A DNA stretch of 64,000 nucleotides from Vicinamibacteria bacterium. Its GTDB lineage: Bacteria > Acidobacteriota > Vicinamibacteria > Fen-336 > JAGNNV01. Position 1 is the first letter of the stretch, and each line of letters begins with the position of its first letter. This document shows, in pieces, positions 35,323 through 63,984 of the stretch. The notes under the pieces were generated by a model. The model was not told where the DNA came from and made no database searches. It saw only the letters and a list, made by a program, of their open reading frames with translations. The stretch is taken from assembly GCA_031392925.1 (NCBI GenBank), contig JANMVV010000049.1, forward strand, positions 36,835 through 100,834. Direction: 5' to 3'. The translations under genes and the position numbers were made by a program.

Positions 35323-36429
35323 TCAGGCCGAGAACCCCAGAAGGGTCTCCTGCCGGAACGATTCAAAGCGGCCCGCGACGATACTCTCCCGCGCCTTTCC
35401 GACCAAATCCAGATAGAAGAAGAGATTGTGCAGGGTGGCGAGCACGCCCCCGGTCATCTCATTCGACAAGTGGAGATGACGAAGGTAGGCCCGGGAGGCA
35501 ATCCGGCATGTGGGGCACCGACAGGAAGAGTCGATCGGCGAGGCGTCCCGGGCGAATTTCGCGTTCCGGATCGACATCTTCCCTCGCCAGGTGAACAGTT
35601 GCCCGGTGCGCGCGTTCCGGGTGGGTAGCACGCAGTCGAACATGTCGACGCCCCTACGGATGCCGTCGAGCAGGTCCTCCGGGGTGCCGACACCCATGAG
35701 GTAACGCGGCCGATCTTCGGGCAGAACAAGATCCATGACCTCGAGAATGCGAACCATGTCTTCCTTGGGCTCGCCCACCGAGAGCCCGCCGACCGCATAG
35801 CCGGGGAAGCCGATCGCGGTGATGGCGCGGGCGCTCAGTTCGCGCAGGTCGTCGTGAACGCCGCCCTGGACGATTCCAAAAAGCCACTGGTCGTCCCGGG
35901 TGTGCGCGCGCTTCGATCGCTCGGCCCACCGGGCCGTCCGCTCGGTGGCATCCTTGACCTCCTCGCGCGTGGCCGGGTAGGGCGGGCACTCGTCGAAGGC
36001 CATGATGATGTCGGCGCCGAGCTTCATCTGAATCTCGATGGAGCGCTCCGGCGACAGCTCGAGTCGGGCGCCGTCGAGATGACTTCGAAAGACCACGCTT
36101 TGCTCGGTTCGCTTCCGAAGGGCCGAGAGGCTCATGACCTGATAGCCGCCGCTGTCGGTGAGAAACGGCTTGTGAAATCCGGTGAAGCCGTGAAGGCCGC
36201 CGAGCTCCTGCACGAGATCCTCTCCGGGCCGCACGTGCATGTGATACGTGTTCGCGAGAATGATCTGCGCGCCGATCTCCTCGAGGTGCGTTGAGGTGAG
36301 GCCCTTCACCGAACCCGCGGTTCCCACCGGCATGAAGACCGGGGTTCGGATCTCGCCGTGGGGCGTGATCAATCGTCCCGATCGCGCGCGACCGGAACGC
36401 GCGTCCACCTGAAACTCAAAATTTTTCAA
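35323..36429 (-). CDS. tgt: Queuine tRNA-ribosyltransferase
   Basis: 368 aa (TTG start, SD gaagg). GRLITPHGEIRTPVFMPVGT, TDSGGYQV. Zinc site CRCPTC...YLRHL. Confidence 0.95.
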   Translation of the reverse strand: MKNFEFQVDARSGRARSGRLITPHGEIRTPVFMPVGTAGSVKGLTSTHLEEIGAQIILANTYHMHVRPGEDLVQELGGLHGFTGFHKPFLTDSGGYQVMSLSALRKRTEQSVVFRSHLDGARLELSPERSIEIQMKLGADIIMAFDECPPYPATREEVKDATERTARWAERSKRAHTRDDQWLFGIVQGGVHDDLRELSARAITAIGFPGYAVGGLSVGEPKEDMVRILEVMDLVLPEDRPRYLMGVGTPEDLLDGIRRGVDMFDCVLPTRNARTGQLFTWRGKMSIRNAKFARDASPIDSSCRCPTCRIASRAYLRHLHLSNEMTGGVLATLHNLFFYLDLVGKARESIVAGRFESFRQETLLGFSA

Positions 36430-36733
36430 ACAAGACCTTCATCGCGATCGGCGAGTATAGGGAATGCGTCGGCGAAGAACGGCCACCCTGGTCGCCATAT
36501 AAGAAACCATATAGAGCCGCAATCAAGGGATGCCACGGAGGGAATCCGCTCCCGCCAGCGTCATAACTAGAGCCAACGGAAGTCGTTGCCGGCCGCCAAC
36601 CTTTTCGTTTGTGTTAAATAAACCATACAAACTCAAAAATCTCACCGATCCACAACAGGTTCTCAACAGAACTTCCACAGGCTAAGACGCTGAAATAAAG
36701 GGAGACGCGCCGATGAAAAATCGCCGCGACCTC

Positions 36734-36762
36734 TTGACAATGTGCAAGTCATTACCTACGCT
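36734..36762 (+). promoter_or_regulatory. Sigma-70-type promoter of the mini-ORF transcription unit
   Basis: TTGACA (36734-36739), 17-nt spacer, TACGCT (36757-36762). Sits in the AT-richer 36430-36945 gap. Confidence 0.5.
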
Positions 36763-36848
36763 CCAACTAGTGCATGCCTCCGCTGTCAACACAAAATGTT
36801 GGAAGCGGGGGTCGGCAATACCTAGATCGAAAGGGGGGATTACACACC

Positions 36849-36896
36849 ATGGCCGCTAAGAAAGCTGCTAAGAAGGCTGCAAAGAAGAAGAAGTAA
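36849..36896 (+). CDS. 15-aa polybasic peptide MAAKKAAKKAAKKKK (small ORF; alternatively part of an sRNA)
   Basis: Not in the track. SD aagggggg (36831-36838), ATG 36849, TAA 36894-36896. Upstream promoter and 5' hairpin (36777-36811). Strong intrinsic terminator directly downstream. Confidence 0.45.
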   Translation: MAAKKAAKKAAKKKK

Positions 36897-36921
36897 GTCG
36901 CTTCCATTTGCGGCTTCAGGA

Positions 36922-36947
36922 GGGGGTGAGCGATCACCCCCTTTTTT
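36922..36947 (+). terminator. Intrinsic terminator of the mini-ORF unit
   Basis: 8-bp GC-rich stem gggggtga / tcaccccc with loop gcga (36922-36941), followed by TTTTTT (36942-36947). The T-tract is on the + strand only and overlaps the convergent HAD stop codon. Confidence 0.8.
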
Positions 36948-37818
36948 ATTTCCCCTCCGAATTCCCGATCAATCCATGGAGCACGAAGCGCTCCACCGCG
37001 TACGCGACGCCGTCCTCGTCGTTTCCGGGAATCACCTCGAGACCGAGGGCGCGCAGTTCCGGATCCGCATTCCCCATCACGCATCCCTTTCCGGCGGCGA
37101 GCAGCATCAGGCGATCGTTCCAGTTGTCGCCGATCGCGAGCACCTCGGCGAGCTCCACACCCCACCGCGCGCAAAGAAAACGGAGCGCCTCGGACTTGTC
37201 CACGGTGGGGGACACGACGTCGATGAGCGACAGATCGTCCTTCGGATAGACGGTTCTATGCGCAGTGATCTCGAAGCCGCGCGCTTCAATCGCTCCAGCG
37301 AGCGCGCTCATCTCGTTCATCGAACCGCCGAACATGACCTGCAGCGGATCATCGTCTTTCCCGGCCACCGCGGCCTCGAGGTTTGGGACCACGCGCACGT
37401 CCGGATGAGATCGGTTCAGGTAGTAAGCGAGGAGGGTGTGGGAGGGAGAGGCGTTTTCGACATAGAGCAGTCCTTCCCCGGCGTGCCCGAAATGCACCAC
37501 CGGATCCGCACCCACGCTCTTCGCGAAAGTGAGCACCGCGATCGCGGACGAACGAGCGAGCGGGCGAACCCTTATGGCGACCGACTCCTCGATTACCAGG
37601 CCGCCGTTGTGCAGAACCAGAGTCGGACGTCCGGGAAGAAGGTCGGCGATCTTCTTCGCCGCCGGATACCTTCGACCGGTCACGAGGGCAAGGCGAACGC
37701 CCGCCTCCAGGGCGGCGGCGATGGACGCGCGATTCCTCGGGGATATCTCCCGTCGAGAGTTGAGCAGCGTTCCATCGATATCGAGGGCGAGGACGCGCGG
37801 CGGCGCCTTCGAGAACAC
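36946..37818 (-). CDS. Cof-type HAD-superfamily hydrolase
   Basis: The proposed GTG start at 37818 lies 2 nt after the PPIase stop. Motif I LALDIDGTLL. Motif III AIGDNWNDRLML. The upstream part of the track ORF (to 38049) overlaps the PPIase gene. Confidence 0.82.
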   Translation of the reverse strand: MFSKAPPRVLALDIDGTLLNSRREISPRNRASIAAALEAGVRLALVTGRRYPAAKKIADLLPGRPTLVLHNGGLVIEESVAIRVRPLARSSAIAVLTFAKSVGADPVVHFGHAGEGLLYVENASPSHTLLAYYLNRSHPDVRVVPNLEAAVAGKDDDPLQVMFGGSMNEMSALAGAIEARGFEITAHRTVYPKDDLSLIDVVSPTVDKSEALRFLCARWGVELAEVLAIGDNWNDRLMLLAAGKGCVMGNADPELRALGLEVIPGNDEDGVAYAVERFVLHGLIGNSEGK

Positions 37819-37820
37819 GC

Positions 37821-39881
37821 TCAGCGGGCCTCGCGGCCGTCGAACACGTCGATTCGATCGATCACGTCGCCGGGGCGGATCTTCTCCACCACTTCCATGC
37901 CCGAGAGGACCTGGCCGAAGAGCGTGAAGGAGCCATCGAGATGAGGCTGCGGCTCGAGGGTGATGAAGAACTGAGAGCCGCCGGTGTCCTTTCCCGACAG
38001 CGCCATACCCACGGCGCCGCGGCCGTAGGGACGTTGGTTGTACTCGCATCGAACCGTCGAACCCGGGCCACCGTACCCGTCCCCGCGGGGATCTCCGCCC
38101 TGAATCACGAAGCCGGGGACCACGCGATGAAAAACGAGCCCGTTGAAGAAGCCGGACTGAGCGAGCCGCGCGAAAGACATCGAGGTGAGGGGGGCGTCCA
38201 CCACATCGAGGACGAGTTCGATGGTTCCGTAGCGCGTCACTATCCGCACGCGCGGCGAATACAGGGTCTGAGCCGTTGTCTCGTAAACGGAGACGAGCAG
38301 CCGGGCGTCGGCCAGACGGAGGGCGGTTTCTTCCGGAGGAGCGAACCCTTCGGAGAGAGCGCCGATCGCTCTTTGCCGCACCGCCCGTGAAGGATCCGAT
38401 CCGGCGATCCGGCGCAGGAGGGTTCGACCCTCGTCGGTGAGGCCCTTGGCGACCGCATCCACGACTGCGATCCGGGCTTCGATGTCCTGGTCGGCGAGCG
38501 AGGCATCGAGGGCGCGCGAAAAGGCCTGCGTGAACGCCCGGCCCGAACCCTTCTCGAGCGACGACAGACCTTCCACCGCCGCGGCCCGGATCCCCATGTC
38601 CGGGTTCTGGATCTGATCCAGAAGGGTGGGAACCGCGCCCTGACCCCGCGCGCGGGCCAGAGCCGCCAGCACGGCGGGGATGACGCGAGGATCGGCGTCC
38701 TTCAGCATCGGCAGGAGAAATGGAGCGGCGCGTTCGCCCAGGCTATCGGCCAGCGCCCCCGCCACTGCCTGCCGAACGCGCCAGTCGCTGTCGGGTCCGA
38801 TGGTGGACAGGACGATTCCCACCTCCTCCGCGTCTGCCTTGATGAGGGCGGGCCATGCCGCCGATCGGATCCACGGATCAGCATGACCGACGTTGTCCAT
38901 GATGCGCGAACGCCACTTCGACGGAGACGGAAGCATCGCGACCGAAAGCAACGCCTCGCGCCTCACCACCGGATTTGGAGAATCAATGTAAGCGGCCGCG
39001 ACCGAGGATCCTTCCGCGGCGCCCAAGGCGCCCACCGCGCGCAACGCCTGGACGGCGACCCCCGGATTGCCATCCTCGACCAGCCGGCGAAGGACACCGA
39101 GGTGCGACGGGTCCTTGAGCGCGCCCAGGCCGCGGGCGGCGAGGGCGCGTATGTACGGGTCTTCCGCTCGCGCTCCGGCGATCAGAATCGGGGTCAGCCT
39201 GGAGTCGCCGATGCGCATGGCGGCCCAGACGGAGACCCACCAGTCGACGAGCGGGGTCGAGTCGGAACCGAGAACCGCGCCGGCGAGGGACTCCGCATCC
39301 TTCAATCGGGCGAGGGCCACCAGATGGAGTCGAAGCTCTACCCAGGGATCGTCGGCACGTCCGGGATCGTCGCCCCGAATTCGCAGGGGACCCTCGCTGG
39401 TCCGGGGCAGGGCCCGACGGAAGGCCTTGGCGATCGACGGTCCGGCGGACGAGAGTCCAATGCGGCCCAGGGCTTCGGAGGCTCGGCCCCTGGTGGCGGC
39501 ATCCGGGTCGCCGAGAGCGGCGATGAGCGCGGGACTTCCCTCGGAGTTGCCCATCAGTCCGAGCGCGAACGCCGTCGCTCGCCGGACCTCGGTTTCGGGG
39601 TCTTTCAGTCGCTGGATCAGGCGGGGAAGGGCGAGCGGGTCGCCGATACGGCCCGCCGCGAGGGCGGCTCGGCGGCGAACCGCCGGATCCTCATGCTGCA
39701 AAAACCTCTGAATGGCGCCGTCTCCGAGCGAGCGAGAGTCCTCGAGCACGAGGATTCGGGCCAGTATTTCTATTCTCGAGAGCGGGTCGGGGAGGTCGGC
39801 TCCTCGCTTCGCGCCGCCGGTGGCGCAAGACAAGACCAGGGCGCCCAGGAGGCCGACCGATATCCGCGTGAATCGCCGCAT
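37821..39881 (-). CDS. Lipoprotein with about 10 HEAT-like repeats fused to a C-terminal cyclophilin-type peptidyl-prolyl isomerase
   Basis: The ATG at 39881 gives [20 protein letters not shown] (lipobox). Repeated ...DP.VRR.AA.ALG.IG... HEAT units. C-terminus [30 protein letters not shown]...GGSQFFITL (cyclophilin signature). Confidence 0.88.
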
Positions 39882-61602: not shown

Positions 61603-63984
61603 CTACCCGAGCTTGCGGCAGATCGCGTCGAAGCGCTGGCGGAGCGCCTCGCCCTCGTCGCCCGTCACCGGGCCGAGCTTCTCGTAGATCGAACGAGCCT
61701 TCTCGACCTCGGCCTTGAAGTTCGACCCTCCGGGCTTGGCGCCCATGGTTCGCGAGGCCCAGGCCTCCTTCAACCGGGTGGCGAGATCCATGGAGTCGAC
61801 CTTCGCCTTGTCGTTCTCAAGCGCCTCGAGCTTCGTCACCAGCTTCTCGAGCTTCTTCCGGTTTTCGTCGACATCCATGTCCGTGCCCTTGAAGGCCTCG
61901 GAGTTCTTCGAGATGAGGCCGGCGAAAAGCGTCTTGAACTTGAGATCCTGCTCGCGGCTCGGGCGCCCGGACATCTTGCGCCAACGGGCGCGGAAGTCGG
62001 CCACTTTGTTCTTGTAGTCCTCCGAGCCCTCCGTGGCGGGTTCGGTGCCCGCGAGCGCTTCCATCTCGGCGAGGAACGAAGCACGCTCGGCCTGGAATTT
62101 CTCGTCCTCGATGGAGTCCCGGCGGCGATAACGGTCGAAGACCGAATCCACCGCCTTGTGGAACTTGTTGTAGAGCTTCTCGCGTTCGCGCATCGGAATC
62201 GGGCCGACTGCCTTCCACTCCGCCTGAAGCTTCTTCGCTTCGGTGGTGGTCTTGTCCCATTCGGTGGAGGCGGCGAGAGCCTCCGCGCGCTTCACCAGAT
62301 CCTCGAAGGCCGCGCGATTCGCGCCAAAGGACTTGTCGCGCTCCTCCATGGCCCCCTTGCGGGCAGCGAAGAACCGATCGGCCGGGGCCTTGAAACGCGG
62401 AATGAGATCCTTCTCGTGCTTGCCCGAGGAGGGAAGGGCCTTCCACTCGGTCTGCAGAGCCTTGAAGTCGTCCGCACCCCTCTTCCAGTCGGTGGACTCC
62501 GTGAGGGCCGCGATCATGGCCTCCGCCCTGACGATGAGATCTTCCTTCTTCTTCTTCGCGTCCTTCTGTTCCGCCGTCCGTTTCGCGAAGAACTCGTTCA
62601 GCCGCTTGCGCAGGGGATCGCGGAAAGAGGTGAACTTCTTCCACAACTCCTCGCCCTGGTCCTTCGGGACCTTGCGGACCTCGGCCCAGCGCGCTTCAAT
62701 ATCGCGAAGCTTGTTGGCGGCCGAGTCGGGATTCTCGATGGACGAAGCGGCCTCGATTTCCGCGATCAGGCGCTCTTGGGCGGCGAGGTGAGCGAACCCG
62801 GTCCACTCGACCGCCTCCCGCACCTCCTGGGTCTTGCCGAAGAGCCTCGGACGGACCTCCTCGAGCGCGCGGCCGATCTTCTTCCGCTCGTCACCCTGGA
62901 GCATGCCCACGAGAGGCTCCATGGTTCGAAGCTCGCGTTGCGCTTCCTCGAGCTGGGAGACTGCCACCTCCTTCTGCTGGATCAGGAACTCCAGACGGGC
63001 GGGCAGGGTGCGCAGGGATTCGAGCTCTTCGTCGCGCTTCTGCTGCGACGCGGCATCGATCTCGGCGAGGGCCTGTTCGACCTTGAGGGCCGCGGTCTCG
63101 AAGCGGAGGCGGCGCGGGTCGTCGTCGGGAACGCCCGCGTCTTTGGTGGTGTGATCCCACTCGGCGCGCAGTGCGCGGACGCGCTCCCGCTGGTTGCGAA
63201 TGATCTCCTCAGCCGCGAGCTTCTCCGCGCGCTCGGCCAGGGAATCGAGGGATGGCGAGACGGCAGCGAATCGCTCGGCGCGACCGGCCGCCGCGATCTT
63301 CCGCGAACAAAGCGCGCTGAATCGCTCGGCGGACTCGTGCCCCTGAACCCCCGAGAGAGGCGGCAGCGCGGCCCACTCGAGACGCGCCTCGACCACGGCG
63401 CCCCGGACTTCGGAGTTGGGAAGGGCCTCGACCCTGGCGAGGATCGCTTCACGCGCCTGGACCGCGGCATCAAAGTCGGCCAGCAACCGGGCCTCTTCGG
63501 CCGGATCGATCGGAGCCGCGGGCGCTTCCGCCTCCGAGGCAGGTTCGAGGTCGGAAGAAGCGTCCGCTTCTTCTTCTTCTTCTTCCTCCTCCTCCACTTT
63601 GCCGAGACGGGAGAGGGCCTCGCGGGCGACCGGCTTGAGACGGGCGCGCTCGGCCACCCGGGTCAGCGAGGCCTCGGACTCGATCTTCTCCACCGCGGCG
63701 ATTCCGGAGTCCTTGAACTCCGAATGGAGGGCGATGTCGACCAGAATGCTCTCGTCGGCGCCATTGACGCGCGAGAACGCGGCGATCCGGACATCATGCG
63801 ATCGCGCGGTCTTTGCCACGTCGGCCAGAGCTTTGGGCCCTTTGATGAAACCGACCGCCTTGGCGCCGGTCTCGCCATGCACTTCCTTGGCCACCCGAAC
63901 CAGCTCGTCGTCGGCGAGATGGGGTGCTATGTCCGCGAAGAGGGACGAGGCTTCGGGCTCGCTCGAGAGCAGAGCCTTGAACAT
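61603..63984 (-). CDS. DUF349-repeat protein
   Basis: 793 aa. Repeated about 75-aa helical units with the EW+..G..P pattern (LQAEWKAVGPIPMREREKLYNKF; LQTEWKALPSSGKHEKDLIPRF; IEARWAEVRKVPKDQGEELWKKF). Poly-Glu tract. Confidence 0.85.
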   Translation of the reverse strand: MFKALLSSEPEASSLFADIAPHLADDELVRVAKEVHGETGAKAVGFIKGPKALADVAKTARSHDVRIAAFSRVNGADESILVDIALHSEFKDSGIAAVEKIESEASLTRVAERARLKPVAREALSRLGKVEEEEEEEEEADASSDLEPASEAEAPAAPIDPAEEARLLADFDAAVQAREAILARVEALPNSEVRGAVVEARLEWAALPPLSGVQGHESAERFSALCSRKIAAAGRAERFAAVSPSLDSLAERAEKLAAEEIIRNQRERVRALRAEWDHTTKDAGVPDDDPRRLRFETAALKVEQALAEIDAASQQKRDEELESLRTLPARLEFLIQQKEVAVSQLEEAQRELRTMEPLVGMLQGDERKKIGRALEEVRPRLFGKTQEVREAVEWTGFAHLAAQERLIAEIEAASSIENPDSAANKLRDIEARWAEVRKVPKDQGEELWKKFTSFRDPLRKRLNEFFAKRTAEQKDAKKKKEDLIVRAEAMIAALTESTDWKRGADDFKALQTEWKALPSSGKHEKDLIPRFKAPADRFFAARKGAMEERDKSFGANRAAFEDLVKRAEALAASTEWDKTTTEAKKLQAEWKAVGPIPMREREKLYNKFHKAVDSVFDRYRRRDSIEDEKFQAERASFLAEMEALAGTEPATEGSEDYKNKVADFRARWRKMSGRPSREQDLKFKTLFAGLISKNSEAFKGTDMDVDENRKKLEKLVTKLEALENDKAKVDSMDLATRLKEAWASRTMGAKPGGSNFKAEVEKARSIYEKLGPVTGDEGEALRQRFDAICRKLG

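Follow-up and report, generated by a model that had tools for sequence, protein, structure and literature searches.

Lys/Ala/Thr repeats of the AAKK/KKAT type occur in the Chlamydia proteins Hc1 and Hc2 (Pfam HC2, PF07382), in AlgP, in HupB-type tails, and in the C-terminal domain of eukaryotic histone H1, with H1-like proteins combining extreme positive charge with the lack of a fixed fold, and those of the Hc1/Hc2 type (~100–200 residues) condensing DNA. Very small basic proteins are also found in the ribosome, with bTHX (~26 amino acids, aa), bL37 (~24 aa), bS22 (~33 aa), and eL41 (25 aa) encoded by small stand-alone genes that are often left unannotated, and short open reading frames (ORFs) that contain runs of one or two kinds of codon and precede a terminator form the leaders pheL, hisL, and thrL (14–32 codons). 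Here we describe a 15-codon gene that shares features with each of these systems. It lies in a 64,000-nucleotide (nt) stretch of the genome of a Vicinamibacteria bacterium (assembly GCA_031392925.1, contig JANMVV010000049.1, positions 36,835 to 100,834 of the forward strand), referred to below as the window, within which all coordinates are given. As judged from the sequence and its relatives, positions 36734–36947 of the + strand are an autonomous transcription unit, single-copy in the genome, with a predicted transcript of ~180 nt, and the product of the gene, MAAKKAAKKAAKKKK, contains 8 Lys and 6 Ala among its 15 residues.

The composition typical of Hc1/Hc2, namely short Lys/Ala(/Thr/Pro) repeats with a very high pI, is found in MAAKKAAKKAAKKKK and its relatives, and the micro-peptide likewise combines extreme positive charge with the lack of a fixed fold. 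In contrast to the H1-like proteins, it has 15 residues (12–34 in relatives), well short of the length of Hc1/Hc2, it has no globular partner, and it is encoded by its own promoter-to-terminator unit. The 15-mer is too short for profile tools; six longer relatives of 20–30 aa gave no match in NCBIfam or Pfam, in the case of Pfam even at an E-value of 10, and no profile match to Hc1/Hc2 was obtained for the tiny forms. The micro-peptide resembles the tiny ribosomal proteins in being shorter than 40 aa, strongly basic, and the product of its own small gene, however bTHX, bL37, bS22, and eL41 are Arg-rich with a defined sequence and length, whereas the micro-peptide family is variable in length, is built only from Lys, Ala, Thr, and Pro, and gave no NCBIfam, Pfam, or PDB hit with the relatives searched. 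Whilst the gene is comparable to pheL, hisL, and thrL in its ORF length, its codon runs, and the terminator that follows, it differs from them in having neither a regulated downstream gene nor an antiterminator, and in encoding a peptide under purifying selection.

Comparative evidence for translation

The ORF at 36849–36896 of the + strand (ATG at 36849, TAA at 36894–36896) reads ATG GCC GCT AAG AAA GCT GCT AAG AAG GCT GCA AAG AAG AAG AAG TAA and, on comparative evidence, is translated, because the Shine-Dalgarno (SD) sequence, the ATG, the frame, and the stop codon are kept among relatives and synonymous changes dominate. An earlier reading made from the letters of this DNA alone (the sequence-only reading) had proposed at this position either a tiny polybasic peptide or a small regulatory RNA (sRNA) whose ORF is incidental, and the comparison bears out the former, with the frame, ATG, SD spacing, and stop kept across 36 versions of the peptide. 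That reading had also suggested asking whether relatives conserve the frame through synonymous changes, as proved to be the case. Among the codons that differ in a codon-level alignment of 19 orthologues, 58% are synonymous, compared with 20% expected for random single changes, and third codon positions hold most of the differences (829 vs 315 and 225), these substitution counts being pairwise and phylogenetically non-independent; the sequence from one Acidobacteriaceae metagenome-assembled genome (MAG; locus L197) entered the alignment with erroneous last codons, with a negligible effect on the counts. Different genomes encode identical peptides with different codons; the strongest example is MAAKKKAAKKKATKKKK, shared by a GC-rich member of the order and an AT-rich genome from another class with 11 base differences between them, every one silent. 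The peptide is retained in an AT-rich genome with the use of AAA and GCA codons.

The 36 distinct peptides collected, 12–34 aa in length, are all rich in Lys, Ala, and Thr and end in a C-terminal Lys run directly before the stop. Composition, an N-terminal MAAKK or MPAKK, and the C-terminal Lys run are conserved, and length varies by repeat units. At each of the loci retrieved across the order, the equivalent ORF (ORF1) starts with ATG, spans 12–30 codons, and lies 7–10 nt after (A/G)AAGGGGGGAT, with peptides including MAAKKKAAKKAAKKKK, MPAKKKAAKKATKKKK, and MAAKKKAAKKTAKKATKKKK. A relaxed pattern recovered MAKKKKAAKKTAKKK (15 aa) and MAKKKAAKKKATKKKAAKKK (20–28 aa) from other families of the class, in units with the canonical SD GAGAGGAGGTGA and again with a GGGGGTGA...TCACCCCC terminator. 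Overall, we consider it very probable that the unit is a real, translated micro-gene. Two further candidate start sites were rejected, with the ATG at 36714, which would open an upstream ORF, not conserved, and the AUG of the leader word AUGUUG replaced by AGG in several genera.

Many loci carry a tandem second paralogue (ORF2) 150–200 nt downstream with its own SD, an example being MAMKKAKKAAPKKKAAKKK. The genera of the sister family mostly have such a two-gene arrangement, seen at ten loci, in which ORF1 is followed by a hairpin and T-run, ORF2 with its own SD, and a terminator, and ORF2 is typically a Pro-containing paralogue. The single gene followed by an ORF2-type terminator in the genus of the window suggests a deletion. 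Separately, second loci in two sister-family genomes (L150 and L159) contain extra small Lys-rich ORFs of 34 and 30 aa, starting MAAKKKAAKKKAAPKAPAKKK... and MAKKKKAAKKKTTKKPAKKKKK... respectively; they are unrelated loci with weaker SDs and non-Lys C-termini, and are candidate genes only.

Conservation and uniqueness of the unit

A DNA search detected the unit in 38 of 41 related genomes. Across 14 congeneric genomes its 217 nt are 92.6–99.1% identical, with identities in the same genomes of 78–90% for the DNA of the neighbouring gene tgt and 69–87% for that of the neighbouring HAD-family hydrolase. This high conservation within the genus begins ~75 nt upstream of the −35 element and extends through the terminator. 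The unit adjoins the HAD gene or a HEAT-cyclophilin gene in most loci of the order and persists elsewhere without them, and the promoter, hairpin, SD, ORF, and terminator are conserved together, including in relatives where the HAD or tgt neighbour is missing, in agreement with the description of the unit as self-contained in the sequence-only reading.

The predicted transcript folds better than 200 of 200 shuffled sequences (z = −4.24). A consensus scanner found the terminator (12 pairs), but with one site detected against 1.5 expected in shuffles, and did not call the promoter, the −10 element of which (TACGCT) matches TATAAT at 3/6 positions. Three words of the unit, taken from the promoter, the SD, and the terminator stem, are each found once in the 5.1-Mb genome, and the MAAKKAAKKAAKKKK ORF is its sole Lys-rich tiny ORF with an SD. 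A repeat or mobile element was rejected as the nature of the unit, since every part of it is unique in the genome.

None of 20 relatives of 20–37 aa was present in a collection of 15 billion proteins by exact look-up, a PDB sequence search with two relatives gave no match, and searches of the paper library for the peptide strings and related concepts brought up nothing relevant. A scan against Rfam 15, which had been put forward as a check, gave no relevant match at E ≤ 1 on either strand of 35500–38000.

Promoter, upstream element, and surroundings

The promoter, leader hairpin, SD, ATG, 15 codons, and terminator with six T described in the sequence-only reading can all be read from the sequence at the positions it gave. 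The −35 element TTGACA (36734–36739) is preceded by an A-tract (36715–36720) and followed, after a 17-nt spacer, by the −10 element TACGCT (36757–36762), all on the + strand, with transcription predicted to start at ~36769–36770. TTGACA is kept in 15 of 15 congeners and TTGACA-N17-TAC(G/C)CT in the majority of the order's other genera, and most have an A-run before the −35 element.

Further upstream on the + strand, alignment reveals a conserved element at 36659–36686, consisting of the inverted repeat GTTCTCAACAGAAC followed by TCCACAGGCTAAG. The inverted repeat is genus-specific; the adjoining 13-mer TCCACAGGCTAAG is found order-wide, 59–60 nt upstream of the −35 element, with small variants in few genera. 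The form TCCACA(G/A)(G/C)CTAAG keeps a constant spacing to TTGACA in the majority of the 22 aligned f1 and f3 loci, and in the f2 locus; two loci have TGCACA and one is altered in the CTAAG part. The element has a single copy in the genome, with no regulon-like copies, and is probably a binding site for a regulator. A reading of the TCCACA core as a DnaA box was not substantiated, with no box cluster near dnaA available for comparison. Outside the window, ~190 nt upstream of the 16S 5′ end on contig C108 of the same genome (G000), a candidate rRNA promoter, GGCTTGACT-N18-TATTCT, carries CCCTACCC in its spacer; this word also occurs between the −35 element and the start site of sister-family micro-gene promoters, which may be a coincidence.

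The micro-gene is flanked by tgt (35323–36429, − strand), which is divergent, and by the HAD-family hydrolase gene (36946–38049, − strand), which is convergent and whose stop codon covers the last two T of the terminator T-run, with a HEAT-repeat/cyclophilin gene and secD farther along. No gene lies downstream of it on the + strand. The U-tract behind the terminator hairpin is present on the + strand only, and the terminator hence belongs to the micro-gene unit, as had been argued from the sequence. The intergenic region is AT-richer than its flanks, as had also been noted, with a GC content of 0.45–0.55 at 36400–36900 compared with 0.60–0.72 on either side. Between tgt and the unit (36430–36655), four short islands are kept within the genus with variable sequence between them: GAGTATAGGGAA (~36457–36468), which reads TATACT on the − strand and is possibly the tgt −10 element, TATAAGAAACCAT (~36499–36511), GCGTCATAACTAGA (~36558–36571), and TGTGTTAAATAAACCATACAA (~36609–36630).

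Leader, ribosome binding, and 3′ end

The leader forms a 5′-terminal stem-loop at 36771–36817 (core 36776–36812, + strand) in both the minimum free energy (MFE) and centroid folds, starting 2–3 nt from the predicted 5′ end. The hairpin has a variable outer stem and an invariant inner stem (UCAACA/UGUUGG), with 96% of cells paired within the genus and 5 pairs changed on both sides, a modest level of covariation support. Nearly all of 30 orthologues have an equivalent 5′ hairpin with differing outer-stem sequences when folded individually, and the loop word A(U/G)GUUG is kept across the order. The hairpin is likely to act as an mRNA-stabilising or regulatory structure. A second small hairpin, GUCCA-N4-UGGAC, abuts the SD in the sister family, with one compensatory pair. 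At the Acidobacteriaceae MAG locus L197, the leader 60–90 nt before the ATG contains a 5′ hairpin and then AUGAUGUUGG, which echoes A(U/G)GUUG.

Pairing between the SD, AAAGGGGGGA (36830–36839, + strand), and the 16S 3′ end can extend to 8 pairs, including one G-U. This is exceptional for the genome, because its 16S 3′ end is the canonical GGATCACCTCCTTTCT and its ribosomal-protein genes have SDs much weaker than that of the micro-gene. The motif (A/G)GGGGGGA(T/A) precedes ORF1 in 28 of 30 aligned orthologues of the order and usually ORF2 as well. The Ala codons are GCT or GCA at 5 of the 6 positions in the ORF, these two codons jointly making up 16% of Ala codons genome-wide. Codon optimisation was rejected as the cause of the GCT bias, as the ribosomal-protein genes of the genome avoid GCT; the bias is consistent with selection to keep the initiation region unstructured, or with some other constraint at the RNA level.

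The stop codon is followed by a 3′ untranslated region (UTR) spacer, GTCGCTTCCATTTGCGGCTTC (36897–36917, + strand), which is nearly invariant in the genus alignment, with a single 1-nt deletion in one species. The intrinsic terminator (36918–36947, + strand) comprises the stem AGGAGGGGGTGA/TCACCCCCTTTT, a GCGA loop, and the T-run; its inner stem GGGGGTGA/TCACCCCC (36922–36941), ahead of T6 at 36942–36947, recurs throughout the order and in a further family of the class. The 3′ arm of the terminator, GATCACCCCCTTT, copies the 16S 3′ end save for one base and is predicted to pair with the SD of the unit itself in the MFE fold (P 0.36–0.6). A word related to GTCGCTTCCATTTGCGGCTTC, GCGACTTCCTCAGGGG, lies behind the stop codon in a different family of the class, and is likewise predicted to pair with the SD (P 0.7–0.9). 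The hairpins at the two ends may stabilise what is a very short message, and the 3′ sequences complementary to the SD may form a translational switch. At three loci of the other family (L189, L191, and L192), a conserved CGACUUCCUCAGGGG (ACUUCCUC) stands directly after the stop; its predicted pairing with the SD GAGGAGG (P 0.7–0.9) would close the whole ORF into a loop and could form a translation-dependent switch.

Distribution and relation to repeat-tailed proteins

The relaxed pattern was also run on a small sample of 48 genomes from many phyla, reached via unrelated tgt loci, and stand-alone tiny Lys/Ala/Thr ORFs with an SD and a hairpin were found in 4 of them, with a T-run in 3 of the 4. 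The carriers are an Acidobacteriaceae MAG (MPAKKKAAKKAAKKKKK), two Bdellovibrionota (26 and 27 aa), and an Acidiferrobacterales MAG (20 aa). The Lys/Ala/Thr pattern is present in 46 of 61 Bdellovibrionales genomes, and among 29 Bdellovibrionales loci that were read, 10 are tiny genes (22–34 aa) and 19 encode longer proteins opening with the same repeats. Stand-alone versions with an SD and a terminator range from 17 to 34 aa across the Acidobacteriaceae, Bdellovibrionales, and Acidiferrobacterales. The neighbourhoods of the carriers, in the Bdellovibrionales and elsewhere, offered no functional hint by guilt by association.

The same repeats form the N-terminal tails of SWIB/MDM2-domain proteins of 108–166 aa, with one example from the same class (L195) and ten from the Bdellovibrionales, the SWIB domain being confirmed by Pfam for L195, L214, and L222 (E-values of 1e-28 to 1e-30). 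They also open H1-like proteins of 120–277 aa in the class of the window and in the Bdellovibrionales, and long H1-like proteins starting MKKKKKK occur in sister families. A weak match to Pfam HC2, below the cut-off (E-value of 2.9e-6), was obtained for one long SWIB-fused tail only. From these sequences, the tiny genes appear to be the stand-alone extreme of a continuum in which Lys/Ala/Thr tails otherwise decorate chromatin-type proteins.

Other Lys-rich proteins were also encountered. Four proteins of 120–190 aa (L175, L182, L183, and L201) combine a polylysine N-terminal half with a strongly acidic or Gly-rich C-terminal tail, forming charge dipoles with no Pfam match; in the sister families they come after a conserved GATGGAGGT...CAGCTGAA junction, suggestive of coupling to an upstream gene. 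Outside the window, an ORF at the uL4 position of the ribosomal-protein cluster, on contig C465 of the same genome (G000; 61822–62664), has a long Ala/Lys/Pro-rich N-terminal extension (MAESPKSKTVKTAPKAKAEKPAKKAAAAPKAKAPAAAKAA...), and several other proteins with Lys-rich tails are encoded elsewhere in the genome (C141, C120, and C294).

Possible functions of the peptide

The reading we favour, in which our confidence is evenly balanced, is by analogy that of a free-standing polycation resembling a histone H1 tail, which would bind polyanions non-specifically and coat nucleic acid in a polyamine-like manner. Non-specific binding is favoured because only composition and the termini are conserved, length varies, and the same repeats tail SWIB and H1-like proteins, a finding that also strengthens the comparison with H1-like AAKK tails made in the sequence-only reading. 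On this account, the perfect −35 element with its A-tract, the 5′ stem-loop, the terminator hairpin, and the very strong SD would give high output from a very small mRNA, with the two terminal hairpins protecting a message that carries few ribosomes. Removal of Met before Ala would leave the 14-residue AAKKAAKKAAKKKK, which carries eight Lys side chains but lacks acidic residues, and the 4-residue AAKK period would place the lysines on one face of a helix. The peptide would then act by charge and not by a specific fold, binding polyanionic nucleic acid (DNA of the nucleoid and perhaps also RNA) much as a polyamine would, albeit one encoded by a gene, and its output would probably be regulated by the conserved element upstream of the promoter and by the 3′ sequences complementary to the SD.

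Several points weigh against this account. The UTRs and synonymous sites are near-invariant within the genus, which a purely peptide-centred model leaves unexplained, and no gene neighbourhood points to chromatin. The analogy with H1 tails is one of composition and not of demonstrable homology, and a free 14-mer may be quickly degraded unless bound. Furthermore, frame-preserving indels are weak evidence for coding, as AAG and GCT repeats slip in threes anyway.

The main rival, though an unlikely one, is that the product is a lineage-specific ribosomal or ribosome-associated micro-protein, lying in an rRNA groove like bTHX, bL37, bS22, or eL41, and that the leader hairpin mimics its rRNA site for autoregulation. 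In size and charge the peptide resembles the tiny basic ribosomal proteins, which are routinely missed by annotation (bS22 and bL37 have been reported in several phyla), its promoter is strong, with an A-tract and, beyond the −10 element, a GC-rich stretch, as is often the case in growth-rate-controlled promoters, and a structured, conserved leader is found in autoregulated ribosomal-protein mRNAs. However, the length of 12–34 aa with repeat-unit variation within one class contrasts with the fixed length and sequence of the known tiny ribosomal proteins, and the peptide contains no Arg, His, or aromatic residues. The gene is also not linked to ribosomal-protein operons, the relatives searched gave no NCBIfam, Pfam, or PDB match, and the use of the same repeats as tails of SWIB and H1-like proteins speaks against a ribosomal role. 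The comparison with ultra-small basic ribosomal proteins offered in the sequence-only reading gained no support.

The near-invariance of the leader, 3′ UTR, and synonymous sites in 15 species, above that of the neighbouring protein genes, speaks for a reading in which the RNA is the main product, either as an sRNA or as a dual-function RNA, with translation of the ORF secondary or serving to control RNA structure and stability. The loop word A(U/G)GUUG, kept across the order and recurring in the Acidobacteriaceae version, the SD-like and anti-SD-like terminator words, the SD:3′ UTR pairing predicted in two lineages, and the fold of the transcript (z = −4.24) are consistent with this proposal. 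Over larger distances, however, it is the UTRs that change, whilst the SD, ATG, frame, peptide composition, and stop persist, and divergence between classes at silent positions only is unexpected of a non-coding seed; the lack of an Rfam match at E ≤ 1 also gives no help to the proposal, which we regard as improbable. An sRNA with an incidental ORF is accordingly disfavoured as the sole explanation, with the highly conserved UTRs leaving room for an added role at the RNA level.

A charge-based role away from nucleic acids, such as the binding of polyphosphate or anionic membrane lipids, or export as an antimicrobial or signalling peptide, would draw on the amphipathic Lys/Ala periodicity and very high positive charge, and neither neighbourhood nor domain evidence ties the peptide to DNA or to ribosomes. 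Nevertheless, the product lacks a signal peptide and any hydrophobic face beyond Ala, transporter and modification genes are absent from the vicinity, and the fusion of the same repeats to the chromatin-type SWIB domain argues against such a role, to which we give slightly less credence again. Lastly, an attenuator sensing Lys or Ala tRNA charging for a neighbouring gene, superficially suggested by a short ORF rich in two amino acids followed by a terminator as in amino-acid operon leaders, has a vanishingly small probability, as had been argued in the sequence-only reading, with no co-oriented gene downstream (HAD convergent, tgt divergent), a stop codon at least 22 nt before the terminator stem, no alternative antiterminator overlapping the ORF, and a unit that stays in place as its neighbours change.

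Implications

At 15 codons, the gene ranks with the smallest protein genes known to us that are both autonomous and under evolutionary constraint, and neither it nor any of 20 relatives is present in the gene calls or protein databases searched. The unit offers a compact natural design, as read from its predicted 5′ hairpin, strong SD, and anti-SD-like 3′ end, by which a very short ORF could be expressed very highly. With such genes present in 4 of 48 unrelated genomes and 10 of 29 sampled Bdellovibrionales loci, the blind spot in annotation is systematic, and the peptide is also invisible to trypsin-based proteomics.

More tentatively, these genes may form a pan-prokaryotic, unannotated class of autonomous ‘oligolysine’ micro-genes of 11–34 codons, the products of which would be abundant, genetically encoded counter-ions akin to polyamines, serving the nucleoid, the ribosome, or both, and made from self-regulating mRNAs that evolved lineage by lineage. 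In that case no shorter free-standing protein genes would be known, high-output mRNAs combining a 5′ hairpin, a very strong SD, and a 3′ end complementary to the SD would have arisen separately in each lineage, and a major cellular polycation would be absent from all proteome and genome annotations.

By analogy with the repeat-tailed proteins, the 15-codon gene described here joins a widespread, unannotated class of tiny polycation genes whose role is probably to coat DNA or RNA. Should the peptide prove abundant, the accounting of charge neutralisation for DNA or RNA in the cells that carry it would change.

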